A stretch of 64,000 nt of DNA from Escherichia phage SD2, in the sequence record PQ821640; one strand, written 5' to 3'. Every line of letters starts with the position of its first letter. Position 1 is the first letter of the stretch. Positions 3,703 to 40,091 of this stretch are shown in pieces. The translations under genes and the position numbers were made by a program. The notes under the pieces were generated by a model. It did not search any database, was not told the DNA's origin, and worked only from the letters and a program-made list of their open reading frames with translations.

Positions 3703-4065
3703 TTATTTCTCCTTATCATCATATTCTAGGAACATATCTGCACGATATGCTTTACGCTCTTCAAACTTAGCAGGATCTACAACAATAAGCAATACAAGGT
3801 TAACATCTAAATACTTCTTAACAAATAGAAATAAATCTTTTCCACAGTTAAAACCTACACCAGTATAGGCATCCCCATATTGATCTACTGATTTAATCTT
3901 CTTACTAACCGTACACTCTATGCTATTCTTTTCTTCTTGGTATAAGGCTTTCCCACCCCAATATGTAAAGAATTTAGTACCGTCAGCACCAAGTTTAAAA
4001 CCTTCTGTTGCATGTCCAGCAAATGAAAGTAAACATAACCAAGTGATCATCAGGTACTTTAGCAT
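3703..4065 (-). CDS. hypothetical secreted protein (signal peptide)
   Basis: Start moved to Met19 (MLKYLMITWLCLLSFAGHA signal-like); overlaps stop of upstream gene. Confidence 0.6.
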   Translation of the reverse strand: MLKYLMITWLCLLSFAGHATEGFKLGADGTKFFTYWGGKALYQEEKNSIECTVSKKIKSVDQYGDAYTGVGFNCGKDLFLFVKKYLDVNLVLLIVVDPAKFEERKAYRADMFLEYDDKEK

Positions 4066-4066
4066 T

Positions 4067-4549
4067 TTAACCACCCAATTGCAAATGTTTAGAAAGAACA
4101 ATATCCCACTGATCACCACAACCGTTATCTATGCGGAACATAATGTACGTATCATCTTCTTCTACAACATATAACACCTCATAGGAATTACAACAGCCTT
4201 CCCAATTTTTAACAGCCTCTGGTGTATCATGTGTAAAAATTTCATTACCATCATACGACCAAAACAAAGGGGTGAGGTTTTCGAACGTCAGTAAAGTAGG
4301 GTTTACTTCATCTTTAACTGCTTCCTCATATTCTTTATGTGTTTGTACTGCTTTAGTTAGTGTACTCATGTCTATCTCCTTTTCTCCTTCTTGACTATGA
4401 AGGATAGCGAACTCTCTAAACTCCACCTCACGCCATGTTTTCAGGTAGTGCTTTATAATTTGATCAACATCTGCCTGTTCAACGTTACTTTTCAAGCAAT
4501 AGTAGTCATGGTCTTCACCCATTCTACCCCATATGCTATACATTGTCAT
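4067..4549 (-). CDS. hypothetical protein
   Basis: 160-aa ORF in operon-like array. Confidence 0.7.
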   Translation of the reverse strand: MTMYSIWGRMGEDHDYYCLKSNVEQADVDQIIKHYLKTWREVEFREFAILHSQEGEKEIDMSTLTKAVQTHKEYEEAVKDEVNPTLLTFENLTPLFWSYDGNEIFTHDTPEAVKNWEGCCNSYEVLYVVEEDDTYIMFRIDNGCGDQWDIVLSKHLQLGG

Positions 4550-10418: not shown

Positions 10419-11408
10419 ATGGCAGCACCAAAATCATGGGAACAATATAAAGAAGAGTGTATACCAATAGCAGAGAGTAAGCAAATCCAAATCTTAGGAT
10501 GGACGGGACAATGGAAAGGGGTCCACACAAAACTTGATTTGTTGTGCCATTGTGGTTATAAATGGGATACTACAAGTATTAACAGTTTTAAATGTGGTAG
10601 CGGTTGTCCACAATGTAGGAGGAAGAATATAAGGAAGTCACAAACAATGTCCGACGATCAACATATTGCAGATTTCTTTTCTACAGGGGAATTTAAGGAA
10701 GGCACTATCTTCACTAACACAGGAACACGGGGTAAAGGATGTAGGAATATTATCTGGATGGTTGAATGTCCTGTTTGCTCTCATGATGAATATGTTCAAG
10801 CAGGTGTTTGTGATGGTAAATTTTACTCTGAAGGAGATAACCTTAAACGAGGGTATATTCCGTGTCGTTGTGGGAACTATCGGTATACAGAAGACCAGAT
10901 CACCTATAGGGTAAAAAAGGAAGTAGAAGGGAAAGGGTATGTCTGGGTAGATTGGATTACCAAACCCTCTTCTATAGGTAAGTTTAAATATCTTTGTCTT
11001 GTGCATGGTGAGCAGATAGGGAGTGCTAATAATTTATTAAGCCTCGGTCGAGGTTGTCCTATGTGTGCTGGTCATAGTCAGCAGCAGTTATATATTAATA
11101 TTGTTAAGGATGATAATATTATAGTTGCTCTTAAGTTTGGTATAGCTAAAGATAGTGATAGGCGATTAAACATTCAAAATAGCCGTAATCTGTTTTTTAT
11201 GGAACGTATTTGTTTATATGATTTTAGCACAGTGAAACAGTGTAAGGCTGCTGAAAGAGCTATAAAGAAAAAATTAAAAACTGGTATTTTAACAGCAAGA
11301 GAGTTGAAAGACGGTCATACAGAAACAGTAAGTGTTTCTGATTTGGAAAATCTTCAAAAAATTATTACACAATATGGTGGCAAGTTAGTATACAATAAGG
11401 AGGTGTAA
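10419..11408 (+). CDS. Cys-rich zinc-ribbon repeat protein, C-terminal T5orf172/GIY-YIG-like region
   Basis: Repeated CxxC pairs (CHCGYKW, GCPQC, CPVCSHDEY, CRCG, GCPMCAGH); AGAGGAG SD. Confidence 0.65.
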   Translation: MAAPKSWEQYKEECIPIAESKQIQILGWTGQWKGVHTKLDLLCHCGYKWDTTSINSFKCGSGCPQCRRKNIRKSQTMSDDQHIADFFSTGEFKEGTIFTNTGTRGKGCRNIIWMVECPVCSHDEYVQAGVCDGKFYSEGDNLKRGYIPCRCGNYRYTEDQITYRVKKEVEGKGYVWVDWITKPSSIGKFKYLCLVHGEQIGSANNLLSLGRGCPMCAGHSQQQLYINIVKDDNIIVALKFGIAKDSDRRLNIQNSRNLFFMERICLYDFSTVKQCKAAERAIKKKLKTGILTARELKDGHTETVSVSDLENLQKIITQYGGKLVYNKEV

Positions 11409-11960
11409 ATGCGGATTACTGATAAGTATGTGTTCTTCTTTTCAGCAAAAGATGAATTTAGCAACTGGTATCTATCATCTTTTATTGAACCTTTAGCACC
11501 CAAGTATAATAATTCTATTACAAGTTCTGTTGAATTTACTTGTGTGGAACAATATATGATGTGGAGAAAAGCATGTTTGTTTTATGATTACAGTATTGCA
11601 TCTTCTATTTTAACCGGAGATCTAAGATATACAGGAGAAAAAGAACAAGCATATTATAAGCGACTAGGCAGATTAGTTAAAGATTATGATGAAGATACCT
11701 GGACTTCTTTACGGGAGAAGATTGTCAAACGTGGTTTGTATCTTAAATACACACAAAATGAAGATCTCAAAAATAAACTTATAACCTACGCAGATAAGGA
11801 GTTCGTAGAGGCAAGCCCTTATGATTCTATTTATGGTATCAAAATGGGGATGTGGGATCGTGACGTGGAAAATAAGGACTGTTGGAAAGGACAAAATCTT
11901 TTAGGAAAATGGCATACAGACCTTGCTGTTTATCTAAAAGCACAATCTGATATTTCCTGA
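11409..11960 (+). CDS. NADAR (YbiA-like, DUF1768) domain protein
   Basis: FFFSAKDEFSNWYLSSF, EQYMMWRKA and GQNLLGKWHTDLAVYL align with my recollection of E. coli YbiA; AAGGAGG SD. Confidence 0.7.
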   Translation: MRITDKYVFFFSAKDEFSNWYLSSFIEPLAPKYNNSITSSVEFTCVEQYMMWRKACLFYDYSIASSILTGDLRYTGEKEQAYYKRLGRLVKDYDEDTWTSLREKIVKRGLYLKYTQNEDLKNKLITYADKEFVEASPYDSIYGIKMGMWDRDVENKDCWKGQNLLGKWHTDLAVYLKAQSDIS

Positions 11961-12020
11961 TATTTTGAAAATTTTTATTTTTATAAAAAGGGGTGTGGGT
12001 TTCATGTACGGAAATTCACC

Positions 12021-12041
12021 CTCTGAATAATATATTCAGAG
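12021..12041. repeat. perfect inverted repeat CTCTGAATA-ATA-TATTCAGAG
   Basis: 9-bp stem, 3-nt loop, read directly; overlaps a second palindrome CAGAGTA...TACTCTG (12037-12062). Confidence 0.6.
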
Positions 12042-12174
12042 TAAATATTATTTTGTACTCTGTTAATAAATTATTTAATTTGTTTGTTGGATTATGATAT
12101 CTGGTTTTTAAAAGGCATACTATCTCTTAACTACTACTTATAACAGAACAGTAAAATCATTTTTATAAAAAGGA

Positions 12175-12382
12175 CAAAATTATTTAAAGTTTTTACAGAT
12201 TTTTGGATACAAATTTTGAAAATGAAAAGTTCAAGTTTGGTCAAAATTATTTAAAGTTTTTGTATGTATTTCTATCCAGATTTTGAAAATGAAAACTTCA
12301 ATTTTTTAAAAATTCCCCAGTTTATTTAAAGTTTTTTTACCTTTTTCCGTAGAAAAATCAAAAATGAAAAGTTCAATTTCGT
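12175..12382. repeat. three tandem direct repeats of about 68 bp
   Basis: Each unit begins TTATTTAAAGTTTTT and ends TTTTGAAAATGAAAAGTTCAA; AT-rich, non-coding. Confidence 0.7.
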
Positions 12383-12400
12383 GTTTTTATGGGTATGCGT

Positions 12401-12515
12401 ATGATAATCATTCTCATTTGTAAATGAGAATCATTATCATTTAATTATGTAAATGATAAGCATTCTCACTAAGAGAATGAGAATCATTAGCAAATGAGAA
12501 TTTTTCTCATTTGCA
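12401..12515. promoter_or_regulatory. cluster of five or more Fur-box-like dyad motifs
   Basis: ATGATAATCATTCTCATT, AATGAGAATCATTATCATT, ATGATAAGCATTCTCA, GAGAATGAGAATCATTAGC, AATGAGAATTTTTCTCATT; compare E. coli Fur box GATAATGATAATCATTATC. Confidence 0.45.
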
Positions 12516-12772
12516 GAATAACGCGCAGGGGCGGTGTTTGTCTCGCGCTCCCGTGTCCCCTCGCCATACAATAAGAATAGCATAACCAACAACAAAAGCA
12601 AGCGATTATTTTTATCTTTACATTTCTTTACAAATTTATTTTAGACGAGCTACCGGCGATCAACCTTCCAACCAGTGCCCCTGGTATGTTAGCCCCGCCT
12701 TTACGCCGTGGGGGTGGCGCTTCCTCTTCTGTATGTAAAACAGTATAAGCCCGATCCCTGGGCTTGTCAAGA

Positions 12773-13039
12773 TTATTTTTTGTTTTCTTGCCAGGATAGG
12801 ACACCTAACCAAAAATACATGTCGCCCCGTGCCCCTGGCGGGATCTTGCTTTCCCCGCCGCCACTGCAAGCCCATAAATAACCATTTACGAACGTATCAA
12901 AGTGATCTATCTCTTCCACCTTATGATCGCCCAGGTTGAGAACGGTTTCAACCTTTAAGCCCGTTGCGCTTGCTACCTGGTGCACCGTGCCGCCTTGCCA
13001 GCCCAATGAGTGCATGAGATGTAAAGGAGTATTTGTCAT
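12773..13039 (-). CDS. hypothetical protein inside a GC-rich, compositionally atypical segment
   Basis: 88-aa ORF on the opposite strand to the surrounding plus block, within 12520-13130 which is visibly GC-richer; overlapping track ORFs in other frames judged spurious. Confidence 0.4.
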   Translation of the reverse strand: MTNTPLHLMHSLGWQGGTVHQVASATGLKVETVLNLGDHKVEEIDHFDTFVNGYLWACSGGGESKIPPGARGDMYFWLGVLSWQENKK

Positions 13040-13149
13040 GGTATCGCCCTTTCTTTGATGTGCGCCCTGGTTGGCGCGGTAGAAAGATAATAGCCGTTTC
13101 CTTTATAGATAGCAAGCAAAAAAGAAATGAAAAAAGATTAAAAAAATGG

Positions 13150-13209
13150 TTGACGTTCCTCACCTGGTAGCGTAGTATTCATCTTGTCGAGGGGCGGCAA
13201 TAGTGCCGC
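13150..13209 (+). promoter_or_regulatory. promoter (TTGACG-17-TAGTAT) plus 5' hairpin GCGGC-AATAGT-GCCGC
   Basis: Read directly; upstream of ORF 13234. Confidence 0.6.
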
Positions 13210-13233
13210 TCATAACAGAAGAGAGAAATAATC

Positions 13234-13506
13234 ATGGCATCATATAGCGCATCAATGATCGTAGCTGGCATCACTGGTAAACCTATGCGCGGTGGCGGAT
13301 CTTTCGCTAACATCAATATTGATGGACGTTTATCCCTGGACGCAGCGATCACAGTGGCACGGGAAACGTTTAAAAAAGAATGTAATTTCAATAAACAAGA
13401 TTATCTCGGTTTCGCTATTGAAAAAACCGCGCGATTTGTGGATTATAAAAGCCCGAAAATGATCGACACTACACTAAAAGCGCAAGATGTAGCGTTTTTG
13501 CTTTAA
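13234..13506 (+). CDS. hypothetical early protein
   Basis: 90 aa; preceded by promoter-hairpin cassette. Confidence 0.7.
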   Translation: MASYSASMIVAGITGKPMRGGGSFANINIDGRLSLDAAITVARETFKKECNFNKQDYLGFAIEKTARFVDYKSPKMIDTTLKAQDVAFLL

Positions 13507-13509
13507 GTC

Positions 13510-13569
13510 TTGACACTGAAAAATAATTTGGTAATATATACTCCATAAGGCGGGAAATGGTTTCCCGCC
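13510..13569 (+). promoter_or_regulatory. promoter (TTGACA-16-TAATAT) plus hairpin GGCGGGAAA-TGG-TTTCCCGCC
   Basis: Perfect 9-bp stem at 13549-13569, read directly. Confidence 0.65.
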
Positions 13570-13591
13570 AAAACAAAGAAAGGGTAACACA

Positions 13592-13954
13592 ATGAGCAAG
13601 CAAATCAATACTATCATGTTAAACCTGGTATCTTTCCGCGATGACGTGAAAAACCTTTCGCGTGATGCAGTGGATGCACGGATCGAAAGCTATCGCACAC
13701 AGATCGCAACGTTACCGCTGAAACGTGATCAACATGCCGCTAATATGATGCTTGATGCTATGATTAAAAAGATGATTCAATGTGATCTTACCCTGGCTTA
13801 TGAATATGCTGGCGATCTCTTTGTAACATATAGCAAGCCCGTTCCAGGTATGAGCACCACGGAAGAATTGCATGCCTTAAATCTGCGACAAGATGCATGG
13901 GATAACATGCGCCGTGTTATGGTATGGGTAGAAAGCGGTAAAATTTACGAATAA
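13592..13954 (+). CDS. hypothetical early protein
   Basis: 120 aa; AAGGG SD. Confidence 0.7.
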   Translation: MSKQINTIMLNLVSFRDDVKNLSRDAVDARIESYRTQIATLPLKRDQHAANMMLDAMIKKMIQCDLTLAYEYAGDLFVTYSKPVPGMSTTEELHALNLRQDAWDNMRRVMVWVESGKIYE

Positions 13955-21785: not shown

Positions 21786-21988
21786 CCTAAATAAAGATGA
21801 TAGCTTTTACCTATCAAAAACGTTCACCGAAAAAAGTGAATAGATCGCGGTATCGAGCTAATCAAGGAGCAGATGAACAACCATACCATGAAGATCATAA
21901 GGCGCTTACAACGTGTTTTAGACCGCTTATTTTTAATTTCTTCATGTAACTATCTGGCAAAAACAGCCTTTTTCTTGTCTTTCCTCTT

Positions 21989-22065
21989 AAATGATAATCA
22001 TTCTTATTTATAGCTGATTATTTATGCAATAAACTGAATAATGTAATAATGATAATCATTCTTAA
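21989..22065. promoter_or_regulatory. two direct copies of AATGATAATCATTCTTA (Fur-box-like)
   Basis: At about 21989 and 22047 inside an AT-rich non-coding region. Confidence 0.45.
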
Positions 22066-22890
22066 CTTAAGACCATCTAACCTATAAAATAATAAGTTAT
22101 CTAACTAAATTAAAACTAATTATCTCACCTTTATTTATAACTTACTGTTACTATCTCATTGATAACCTTATATTAAACAACAATAACTAATATAAATTAT
22201 TACTAAGCTAAATATAATCTATCTAACCTTTAAAACTATAATTATAATCTATCGAATTGTTGCACAAAGTAACTATTAAATTGTTAGTAACATTACTAAA
22301 TAATTAATATCCTATCTATTTATGATCTAATCTTTACCTTCCTATTTATTACCTAAATAATCATTTCATACCGTAATCATTTCATACAATAATTATAACA
22401 AGAAATATAATTAACAAGCGTATCATTAGCAGCCTATGCCGGACACATAGGCGGCTAATAATAACGCAACTACACACCCCACATAATAACCATCACCGAT
22501 AGTTATTATTTGTGCTTATGTAGCTTGCAACAACTGCAAGCGCAACAATATACATGGTATATTGTATTCCCTTACATTGTTGCGGTGCGTTATTATTAGC
22601 TAATGTTTGGAACATTGGCTATAATATAAGCTATCCAATAATAAACATAGTGAATAATAACCCTGATGATCATAATGCGCCACCTTCCAGGGGGCGCTAT
22701 GTGAACACAAAGAAATCTTTCTTGTCAAGAAAAATATTACCATTATTGCGCAAAATTATTTACATCTGAATAGATGGTTTTTCATACTATTGCCCCATAT
22801 AGCCTATCATTTGTTGAGCCTACTTTCTTAAAAGCGCAATAAATTAGAATTATCTTGATTTTTAGGGCGTTTTATAGTATAGAAAATATG

Positions 22891-22915
22891 CAAATGATAA
22901 TCATTATCAGTTATC
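22891..22915. promoter_or_regulatory. Fur-box-like site AATGATAATCATTATC
   Basis: 16 consecutive matches to the E. coli Fur consensus as I recall it. Confidence 0.5.
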
Positions 22916-23070
22916 TTCCACGGGTGGCACTATTTCACGCAGGATCATTTCATTTGGCAAGGTGTATATAGATGTTTAGACTTGCCAAGCCATTGATTTG
23001 CTTAGAATTTATCTGTTTTGTTGTGAGTAATGCCTTTCTTGCTCAGAAAATAATCAAAAGTCTTATAAGT

Positions 23071-23114
23071 CATTGAATGATAATGCAAATGATAATAATT
23101 CTCATTGATATTTG
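23071..23114. promoter_or_regulatory. degenerate tandem Fur-box-like motifs
   Basis: GAATGATAATGCAAATGATAATAATTCTCATTGATA. Confidence 0.4.
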
Positions 23115-23512
23115 AGGGGGACGGTCAGCAGAAATCGGGGGGCGCTGAAAATCGCGTTAAGCACCTCTCGCAAGCGAGCAGTATTTTGCGGCAAGTTATT
23201 GATATTATTGACTTTACGCTTATGAAAAGGGGGTGTGTCGAAATAAATCGGGTATACCGGAAAATTTTTGTGGCATAGATATTTATTTGTCTATATTATG
23301 TACAAAGGGGTGTGTTAAAAATATTAGGTATATATAGAATAATTGATAGGGAAATCCTATACTAAATCCTTCATTATTGCAGCGGGTGAAAGACAGAATC
23401 GAAGATGCAAATAATGCTTGCATTGGATAGAAATGTCTGTATAGTGGTTTGCATACCGCGCACGACGCGTTTCCATTTTCAATAAAATGTTAGCATTATG
23501 GGGAGGTAGAAA

Positions 23513-39532: not shown

Positions 39533-40091
39533 TCTCCTCTAAAATAGGTTTAATAAATTCGAAGATTTGTTTTTTACTTTTACCTCGAATATTAAAACAA
39601 GGAACATTAAACTTTTTAGCCAACATCCAAGCTGTTCTTGTACCACCTAAAGGATCTCCATTTTTATCTGTATTTGCACAAGCTAAAAGAAAACAAGATG
39701 GTTTTGGATTCTCAAGATCTCTGCCAAGAACTTGGTGGATATTCCTTTGATGTAATTTTTTAGCACCTTGAGATAATCTGTCCCAAGCAGGATGCAATTC
39801 TTTTGCATATTGCAAGGTTAGAGCATAGTTTACACTATCTGGTCTGTCAAGAACAATAACCTCTCCCTCTATCTCATTACCTTTAAACGAAGGCCAAGGA
39901 ATGTATATTTCTTTCTTTGTATTGTTTCCACTATCATATACCCCGCATTCAAATGCGGAATCTGCGCCTTCTGCTTTACCAGATCGTAAAATGAACCATG
40001 TAGATAACCATTTGGCAACAGCTACCATAGTGTCCCATTCTTCGTCTGTAATATCTCTGCTACCAACACCTGTGTAGAATAAATCGCTCAT
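39513..40091 (-). CDS. putative SLOG/DprA-like Rossmann-fold protein
   Basis: Track ORF trimmed to ATG at 40091 (AAGGAGAA SD); GVGSRD and SGKAEGADSAFECG resemble DprA/LOG-type motifs; tentative. Confidence 0.5.
   Translation of the reverse strand: MSDLFYTGVGSRDITDEEWDTMVAVAKWLSTWFILRSGKAEGADSAFECGVYDSGNNTKKEIYIPWPSFKGNEIEGEVIVLDRPDSVNYALTLQYAKELHPAWDRLSQGAKKLHQRNIHQVLGRDLENPKPSCFLLACANTDKNGDPLGGTRTAWMLAKKFNVPCFNIRGKSKKQIFEFIKPILEENGLVQK

Follow-up and report, generated by a model that had tools for sequence, protein, structure and literature searches.

Promoter-proximal structured RNAs that work through host machinery are known from phages, among them the put RNA of HK022 and the leader pseudoknot of T4 gene 32. 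Other phage small RNAs, such as species C and D of T4 and pseudo-ToxI of phiTE, have promoters of their own. Here, we describe a GC-rich patch at positions 12520-13130 of a 64,000-nucleotide (nt) stretch of Escherichia phage SD2 (sequence record PQ821640; hereafter the window, numbered from its first letter). We find that two neighboring units, both leftward (minus-strand), make up this patch as a mosaic at the head of the early region: a gene for a protein of 88 amino acids (aa) and a separate candidate structured small RNA. The best overall explanation, to which we assign a probability of roughly 0.55, is a real small gene next to a stand-alone, early, leftward gene for a structured small RNA.

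The RNA element resembles T4 species C and D and pseudo-ToxI in being a short non-coding unit of a lytic phage, with its own promoter and apparently dependent on host RNA polymerase. Unlike them, it is a single-copy pseudoknot plus hairpin conserved across phage subfamilies, and it shows no sequence or structural kinship with either. Pseudo-ToxI consists of ~36-nt tandem repeats, with an escape locus at 106,714-106,772 of phiTE (PMC3475682). The same phage carries our element at 39,680-39,848. A type III antitoxin mimic of the pseudo-ToxI kind was rejected, as pseudo-ToxI is a separate phiTE locus and the core of our element has no tandem repeats.

The likeness to HK022 put and the T4 gene 32 leader is one of layout only, namely a conserved fold within a few nucleotides of a (here predicted) early start. 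Like the T4 gene 32 operator, the element has an A/U-rich tract after its predicted H-type pseudoknot. Unlike put and the gene 32 leader, however, the element has in most phages no downstream gene on which anti-termination or translational control could act. Furthermore, put RNA is made of two stem-loops and has no pseudoknot, and neither of the two RNAs bears sequence similarity to the element.

A conserved, covarying element restricted to phages

Positions 11900-13700 of the window are 97-98% identical to Justusliebigvirus genomes such as W22, alia, and PHB05 (megablast). On this similarity, we assign the window to Justusliebigvirus, that is, to a phi92/rV5-like coliphage; such myoviruses have genomes of ~148 kb and belong to the Stephanstirmvirinae. 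In Justusliebigvirus records, the 88-aa open reading frame (ORF) is listed as a hypothetical protein, and the stretch between it and the upstream NADAR gene is unannotated. The 611-nt segment that makes up the patch matches 236 phage records (sensitive blastn) and occupies the same syntenic place in at least 127 phage records. In Certrevirus, Seunavirus, Mydovirus, and others, 125-210 nt alone align (window ~12521-12739; 72-85% identity), mostly in unannotated sequence, the ORF and the remainder having diverged past detection by blastn. An RNA core of ~90 nt (12642-12736) is near-invariant across Stephanstirmvirinae, Vequintavirinae, and Aeromonas phage PAc (Plateaulakevirus).

We find this element in phages only. 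E. coli genomes contain no match to the segment. A pattern scan of bacteria (one genome per species, 185,579 species) returned 31 hits, near the ~20 estimated by hand to arise by chance, and just one of them was real. This match lies on a 4-kb contig (L183; JAEZZU010000352.1) that was binned as “MAG: Proteobacteria bacterium” and is a Stephanstirmvirinae-like phage fragment. The pattern CCGGCGAT...CGCCGT...GGCG proved too loose for a family search, with 119 of 120 loci due to chance.

Two further observations concern individual phages. Four GenBank records named “Campylobacter phage” A145, B15, C3, and A150 (MG065645, MG065650, MG065656, and MG065639, respectively) match this coliphage segment, A145 at 97% and B15 at 92.5% over the 611-nt query; their host labels are probably wrong. 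Raoultella phage Ro1 (contig L150, 2172-3026) has an HNH endonuclease gene with a copy of the RNA element on either side. The two copies have diverged, one resembling that of P8734 and the other that of KpS8, and each has its own minus-strand promoter. This double copy looks like a homing-endonuclease insertion with co-conversion.

A covariance model built on 27 diverse copies scored 52.5-107 bits on 39 elements and no more than 20.5 bits on unrelated loci, which we take as noise. The window holds exactly one copy, on the minus strand (94.1 bits; Table 1), and 23 further copies were detected on metagenomic contigs. A search of the whole window against Rfam 15 at gathering thresholds gave no match. 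At E ≤ 10, the Rfam matches within 12000-13300 were low-complexity ones to AT-rich palindromes, with none on 12642-12736. ARAGORN found no tRNA or transfer-messenger RNA gene in the window. Literature searches on transcriptomes, non-coding RNA, or Fur boxes in these phages returned nothing relevant, and we found no paper on the RNA element. The element is previously undescribed and represents a new family among phage-encoded structured small RNAs.

Several resemblances noted by eye were also considered and dropped. Complementarity of GGAAGGUGGAUC to the 16S rRNA 3' end, of the Shine-Dalgarno type, was rejected because the would-be pairing positions are variable and the tract is absent from P8734. 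An HDV-like ribozyme topology was rejected because the P1 complement that it needs is absent. The likenesses of the core to domain IV of signal recognition particle RNA and to a tRNA D-arm were by-eye comparisons only.

The predicted fold combines hairpin P2 with an H-type pseudoknot formed by stems S1 and S2 (Table 1). The sequence of P2 can differ completely (P8734, Tr1, L158, and PAc) while the hairpin stays, and in two metagenomic contigs, including L226, it has shrunk to a C(UUCG)G mini-hairpin in the minus sense. The length of P2 varies by 1, 2, 5, and 6 nt. These changes are not multiples of three, which shows that the RNA element is non-coding. S2 occurs as CCCC/GGGG, CCAA/UUGG, and CCAG/CUGG, with C-G replaced by A-U in at least 11 sequences.

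We show that these pairs covary. In a model-based alignment of 39 distinct sequences, assessed with 500 shuffles and with slid controls, 93.2% of the cells were paired, compared to 83.1% in shuffles. Both sides had changed in 8 pairs (52 cells). The covariation score of 0.212 (0.070 in shuffles) was reached by none of the 500 shuffles, and slid controls gave at most 0.053; the alignment was fitted to part of the structure and its sequences are related, so that these statistics are supportive rather than exact probabilities. Within P2, compensatory changes were seen in 7 of 9 pairs. Divergent homologues were needed for this analysis, since RNAalifold on closely similar sequences yielded a single compensatory pair. 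We conclude that the predicted secondary structure has been conserved through compensatory substitutions beyond those expected from controls.

This covariation also bears on whether the core might act as double-stranded DNA alone, for example as a packaging or partition site bound by a phage or host protein, with no role as RNA. Such a site would fit the extreme conservation, which extends to unpaired positions, the several deposited genomes that begin near this region, and the homing endonuclease genes that adjoin the element. However, a duplex site does not need pairing to be kept by compensatory change through full sequence turnover, as it is in P8734, Tr1, L158, and the UUCG mini-hairpin of L226. 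The promoter that accompanies the element in all cases, at a constant distance, also speaks against such a site. We therefore regard a pure DNA site as extremely unlikely.

Table 1. Features in and around the GC-rich patch. Coordinates, including those of structural elements, refer to the plus strand; sequences of structural elements are given in the minus (RNA) sense.
Feature	Positions	Strand	Remarks
Candidate structured small RNA	12642-12736	-	Covariance-model match 12642-12725; predicted 5' end ~12734-12736
Predicted sigma-70 promoter TTGACA-N17-TATACT	12742-12770	-	11/12 consensus matches; GC-rich spacer hairpin 12747-12765; upstream A-tract 12775-12790
Hairpin P2	12669-12688	-	In every copy; single-nucleotide bulge
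Pseudoknot stem S2	CCCC 12710-12714 with GGGG 12693-12696	-	Covaries
Stem S1	CGCC 12716-12719 with GGCG 12704-12707	-	Invariant; encloses 5' strand of S2 (predicted H-type pseudoknot)
Alternative stem P1	CGCC 12655-12658 with GGCG 12704-12707	-	CGCC invariant; excludes S1
Invariant CTACCGGCGAT	12650-12660		Within RNA element
88-aa protein-coding gene	12773-13039	-	phrog_19316 (PHROGs), family of no assigned function; five predicted helices
Promoter-like site TTGCTA-N17-TATTAT	13087-13115	-	Upstream of 88-aa gene; consensus match only
Three AT-rich direct repeats, 67-79 nt	12159-12379		Possible iterons or regulatory sites; GC 23%; TTTGAAAATGAAAAGTTCAA 3x vs 0.06 expected
4-5 Fur-box-like palindromes AATGAGAATCATTCTCATT	12400-12511		16/19 positions of Fur consensus
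Conserved GC-rich block with motif GGTGTTTGTCT	12521-12575		63.6% GC
Two direct TCTTTACA repeats	12615-12632		Just past 3' edge of RNA core; conserved in most relatives
Promoter-like site TTGACG-N17-TAGTAT	13150-13178	+	Head of rightward early genes, divergent from leftward unit; invariant among close relatives

Promoter, strand, and possible action of the RNA

All 33 elements checked have a minus-strand match to the sigma-70 promoter (9-12 of 12 consensus positions, with a spacer of 17-18 nt), and in all 33 its −10 hexamer ends 9-16 nt before model position 1. Conservation thus starts at the predicted start of transcription. Across copies, the hexamers are conserved, and the spacer is a GC-rich hairpin whose sequence varies. 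With hexamers 17 ± 1 bp apart and at conserved positions, the RNA unit has a predicted sigma-70 promoter. Together with its upstream A-tract, this promoter agrees with the early-promoter consensus of Certrevirus, AAAA(N4)TGTTGAC(N17)TATAAT (PMC7344957).

Several lines of evidence point to the minus strand as the one that functions. PAc and the second Ro1 copy keep the minus-strand promoter, and plus-strand signals are absent from both. In Ro1, the HNH endonuclease ORF, with its own AAGGAGG and ATG, follows directly after the element on the minus strand. P2 is more stable in the minus sense for 26 of 34 distinct hairpins, and one variant has it capped by C(UUCG)G when read in that sense. Special tetraloops number three in the minus sense and one in the plus sense, which is a weak indicator of strand. 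In the minus sense, the predicted pseudoknot has a loop L1 of 1-2 nt and an A-rich loop L3 of 5-7 nt; such lengths fit a canonical H-type pseudoknot in this sense only. We infer that the minus strand is probably the functional strand of the RNA element.

A rival reading involves palindromes to the left of the element. The consensus of the Fur box is GATAATGATAATCATTATC. With up to three mismatches, it has 6 hits in the window, compared to 0.03 expected, and a further count for the palindrome cluster gave 12 hits, compared to 0.06 expected. In 4MG and P8734, agreement with the consensus extends over 16 contiguous bases of the palindrome. In relatives, the palindrome lies within the spacer of TTGAAT-N18-CAGAAT, a promoter-like site on the plus strand that would be aimed towards the RNA gene. 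The palindromes at 12400-12511 are thus Fur-box-like in their letters (16-17 of 19 positions over the sites in the window), with weak promoter overlap here. As at Fur-repressed promoters, they lie in a promoter-like spacer in relatives. Unlike Fur boxes, they stand in a lytic phage, beside a non-coding unit, and have the half-site GAGAAT instead of GATAAT; a phage protein could bind them instead.

These sites raise the possibility that the functional RNA is iron-responsive and made from the plus strand, starting at ~12525 (in relatives) from the palindrome-overlapped promoter and ending at the hairpin 12747-12765, or that both strands form a sense/antisense switch. The promoter with its embedded palindrome, TTGAAT-N18-(C/T)(A/T/G)GAAT, is kept in most relatives, five wobble pairs are compatible with the plus sense only, and the downstream hairpin is accompanied by a T-run (12747-12790). 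However, this T-run begins ~10 nt past the hairpin here and ~25 nt past it in CR9. The −35 of the promoter-like site is degenerate in this window (GCAAAT), and a promoter scan calls none there. PAc and the second Ro1 copy dispense with both plus promoter and palindromes, and the metagenomic relatives L158 and L159 have a different palindrome. Moreover, the Fur sites are putative matches to a consensus. Thus, we consider a functional plus-strand RNA, alone or as half of a switch, quite unlikely. A second plus-strand promoter seen by eye beside the core, TTGCAA-17-TACAAA, was rejected because it is not conserved in this window.

Under the favored explanation, a strong host-type sigma-70 promoter at 12770-12742 would start minus-strand transcription at ~12735. 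The first ~90 nt of the RNA would fold compactly, as a short stem whose loop pairs downstream to form the H-type pseudoknot, then a bulged hairpin of variable sequence with invariant junctions, and finally the invariant 3' segment AUCGCCGGUAG. The RNA is presumably made early. We suggest, tentatively and at less than even odds, that it may act in trans as a folded molecule bound by a conserved host or phage factor, and not by pairing with variable mRNAs. This suggestion draws on the joint presence of covarying stems, a pseudoknot, and unpaired nucleotides that do not vary, as found in RNAs whose fold is recognized by a protein or ligand and not in regulators that act by base pairing.

Several findings weigh against a stand-alone leftward RNA of this kind. 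Its expression, its ends, and its strand are all inferred from sequence. Five G-U wobbles fit the plus sense only and two the minus sense only, and such counts favor neither strand decisively. Downstream of the core on the minus strand (12642-12520), this window has no convincing intrinsic terminator. The metagenomic variant L219 breaks two of the four S2 pairs. S1 and P1 exclude each other, and neither shows covariation, since both are invariant. Kinship among the sequences means that the shuffle statistics overstate independence. Folding energies of long transcripts were no better than those of shuffles (z = +1.0 and −0.1). We also rejected a terminator-ended, Hfq-type small RNA, as there is no GC hairpin with U-run downstream of the core, and the GC block in this region has no consensus fold (RNAalifold on 12521-12575).

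A bolder scheme can be drawn from the same elements. The RNA might represent a new phage RNA class with an aptamer- or ribozyme-like core, built of the pseudoknot, the bulged hairpin, and the invariant junctions. It would be made within minutes of infection and would bind some host component that is conserved universally. The convergent Fur-box-like promoter would oppose it in most lineages, and through the resulting sense/antisense switch a strictly lytic phage would make an early choice in its development or replication depend on host iron. We regard this scheme as a long shot.

The 88-aa gene and the composition of the patch

We show that the 88-aa ORF is protein-coding. Homologues with 50-68% aa identity were detected by tblastn in the distant phages W70, Av-05, and Kashira, in phiTE_079, and in CR9-like contigs. 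The protein alignment shows an invariant motif at the N terminus, LMxxLxWxGGTVxQVAxxTGLxV, and FWxG at the C terminus. Between the window and W70, differences fall on the three codon positions as 24/17/42, with 22 synonymous codon changes, which indicates purifying selection on the protein. Judged by conserved translation and third-position substitution bias, the ORF is a genuine gene.

Its product belongs to a small family. A search of 5.8 billion sequences yielded only 21 protein clusters, all of them phage, metagenome, or unnamed records. AlphaFold2 gave a confident five-helix model (pLDDT, the predicted local distance difference test, 93.4). Nothing in Pfam scored above cutoff, and the sequence search of PDB gave E ≥ 0.5. 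With the model, Foldseek returned no PDB hit at E < 1 and only uncharacterized family members among the viral structures of BFVD. A Cro/XRE-like helix-turn-helix regulator that binds DNA was rejected, as no Pfam or structural match to that fold was obtained. In relatives, the same slot is occupied by unrelated small minus-strand ORFs (KpS8/GAP31, P8734, and ChuuTotoro) or by none (CR9, SSE121, and ABPH49), which marks it as a variable cargo slot. The first unit of the favored explanation would thus be an all-helical gene of no known family in a variable accessory slot.

The patch as a whole is compositionally extreme. Its GC content is 48.1%, compared to a mean of 37.1% (standard deviation 2.8) over all 600-bp windows; the value is reached by only 0.16% of these, and GC across the 64-kb window peaks here. 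The left neighbor, 11900-12500, is the minimum (24.7%). GC is also uneven within the patch, at 63.6% in 12521-12575, 23.1% in 12576-12640, 58.9% in 12641-12735, and 49.1% in the 88-aa ORF. A sequence-only reading of this DNA had described the segment as visibly richer in GC than its surroundings, and the sliding 600-bp calculation agrees; the uniform composition that would have spoken against it was not seen, with values of 23.1-63.6% by segment.

The same reading had noted an 88-aa ORF as the only minus-strand candidate in a long plus-strand block, and this too is borne out. ORFs of at least 110 aa run on the minus strand to ~7 kb, on the plus strand from ~7.7 to 33.4 kb, and on the minus strand again beyond. 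The remaining minus-strand ORFs within this ~26-kb block all overlap listed plus-strand ORFs, which leaves the 88-aa ORF as the odd one out.

Two origins had been offered for the composition, namely recent horizontal acquisition or, alternatively, a structured RNA. The second is supported for no more than the ~90-nt sub-segment at 12642-12736, which is apart from the ORF and had not been singled out. The first would make the patch a recently acquired foreign insert with the 88-aa ORF as its payload. GC at third codon positions (GC3) in the ORF is indeed 52.8%, compared to 34.4 ± 5.7% in 19 neighboring genes, and both the variable slot and the small, patchy family would suit a foreign gene. However, the arrangement is found in all close relatives, at the shared syntenic position already described, and the RNA core spans two subfamilies and a further genus. 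The 88-aa gene itself also occurs in Vequintavirinae. No bacterial source was found in E. coli or in the 185,579-species scan, the patch has no mobility genes and no flanking repeats, and conserved non-coding blocks account for about half of the GC signal. A recent foreign insert is thus very unlikely and appears largely refuted by synteny. In a weaker form, foreign origin is plausible for the ORF alone, since its GC3 and its variable slot fit exchange with related phages of higher GC, not recent import from bacteria. The high GC of the patch is due to RNA stems and to the atypical codon composition of the 88-aa ORF, rather than to recent insertion.

Flanking DNA and implications for these phages

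The DNA into which the leftward promoter points invites comparison with replication origins. Transcripts prime replication at T4 oriF and oriG, at the T7 primary origin, and, as RNA II, in ColE1. Our locus resembles these in that a strong predicted promoter and a G-rich, structured transcript would stand next to AT-rich repeats. It could accordingly be an origin module in which the promoter fires into the AT-rich repeats and the transcript serves as a primer or forms an R-loop. The promoter faces the lowest-GC DNA of the window (23-25%), with its three 67-79-nt direct repeats, and phiTE has ~8 GGGTCTCGATC repeats at the corresponding place. GC skew is negative on the plus strand, and the minus-strand RNA is therefore G-rich. 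The repeats are lineage-specific and the core invariant, as expected of initiator sites next to a host-facing element. Furthermore, the origin is unplaced in the rV5 genome paper, whose authors were unable to locate it (PMC3606486).

Unlike transcription-primed origins, however, the element occurs without AT-rich repeats in PAc, where it adjoins a gene terminator, and in Ro1, where the second copy is followed by the HNH gene. The cumulative GC skew does not turn here, and the ORF-free AT-rich region at 21950-23500 is an equally good candidate. Priming through an R-loop also does not need a compact, covarying pseudoknot. We therefore consider an origin module unlikely, although somewhat less so than a functional plus-strand RNA, and retain a stand-alone small-RNA gene as the favored explanation of the element.

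Other features of the surrounding DNA deserve mention. The repeat arrays left of the conserved element differ between lineages, with three repeats of 67-79 nt here and those of phiTE at ~1480-1740 of its sequence in our set (L005). An exact 15-nt repeat, ATTTTTATAAAAAGG, with the palindrome TTTTTATAAAAA, occurs at 11977-11991 and 12159-12173, 182 bp apart, after the NADAR gene. The plus-strand genes upstream encode a CapR-homology/T5orf172 protein (10419-11408) and a NADAR-domain protein (11409-11960). To the right, a 257-bp insert separates the early promoter from the first early gene in alia (L002, ~3830-4085, corresponding to window ~13196) and many relatives. The insert, which is absent from this window and from W22, carries a second promoter-like site and a very small hydrophobic ORF.

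A second ORF-free AT-rich region of ~1.5 kb, at 21950-23500, has the second-lowest GC in the window and is a candidate regulatory or origin region. It contains Fur-box-like sites at 21990, 22045, 22890 (17/19 to consensus), and 23088. A GC hairpin, GCGCCACCTTCCAGGGGGCGC, at ~22680-22700 contains CCACCTTCCA, the core-junction string of relatives (CCACCTTCC), a match that may be fortuitous.

The rV5 genome paper draws an ORF-free “non-coding” box without comment (PMC3606486). Phages of the rV5/phi92-like group are common candidates for therapy and biocontrol, yet ~70% of the genes in this group, and every one of its long “non-coding” boxes, lack an explanation. The near letter-for-letter conservation of the RNA element amid neighbors of undetectable similarity, its constant host-type promoter, and the homing endonuclease genes that adjoin it in some phages suggest an important early function. 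The element is a candidate new family for RNA databases. If the Fur-box-like sites are real, they would represent a rare case of a lytic phage sensing the iron status of its host. The RNA element itself offers a small, mutable target for studying host takeover or the start of replication in this group of phages.

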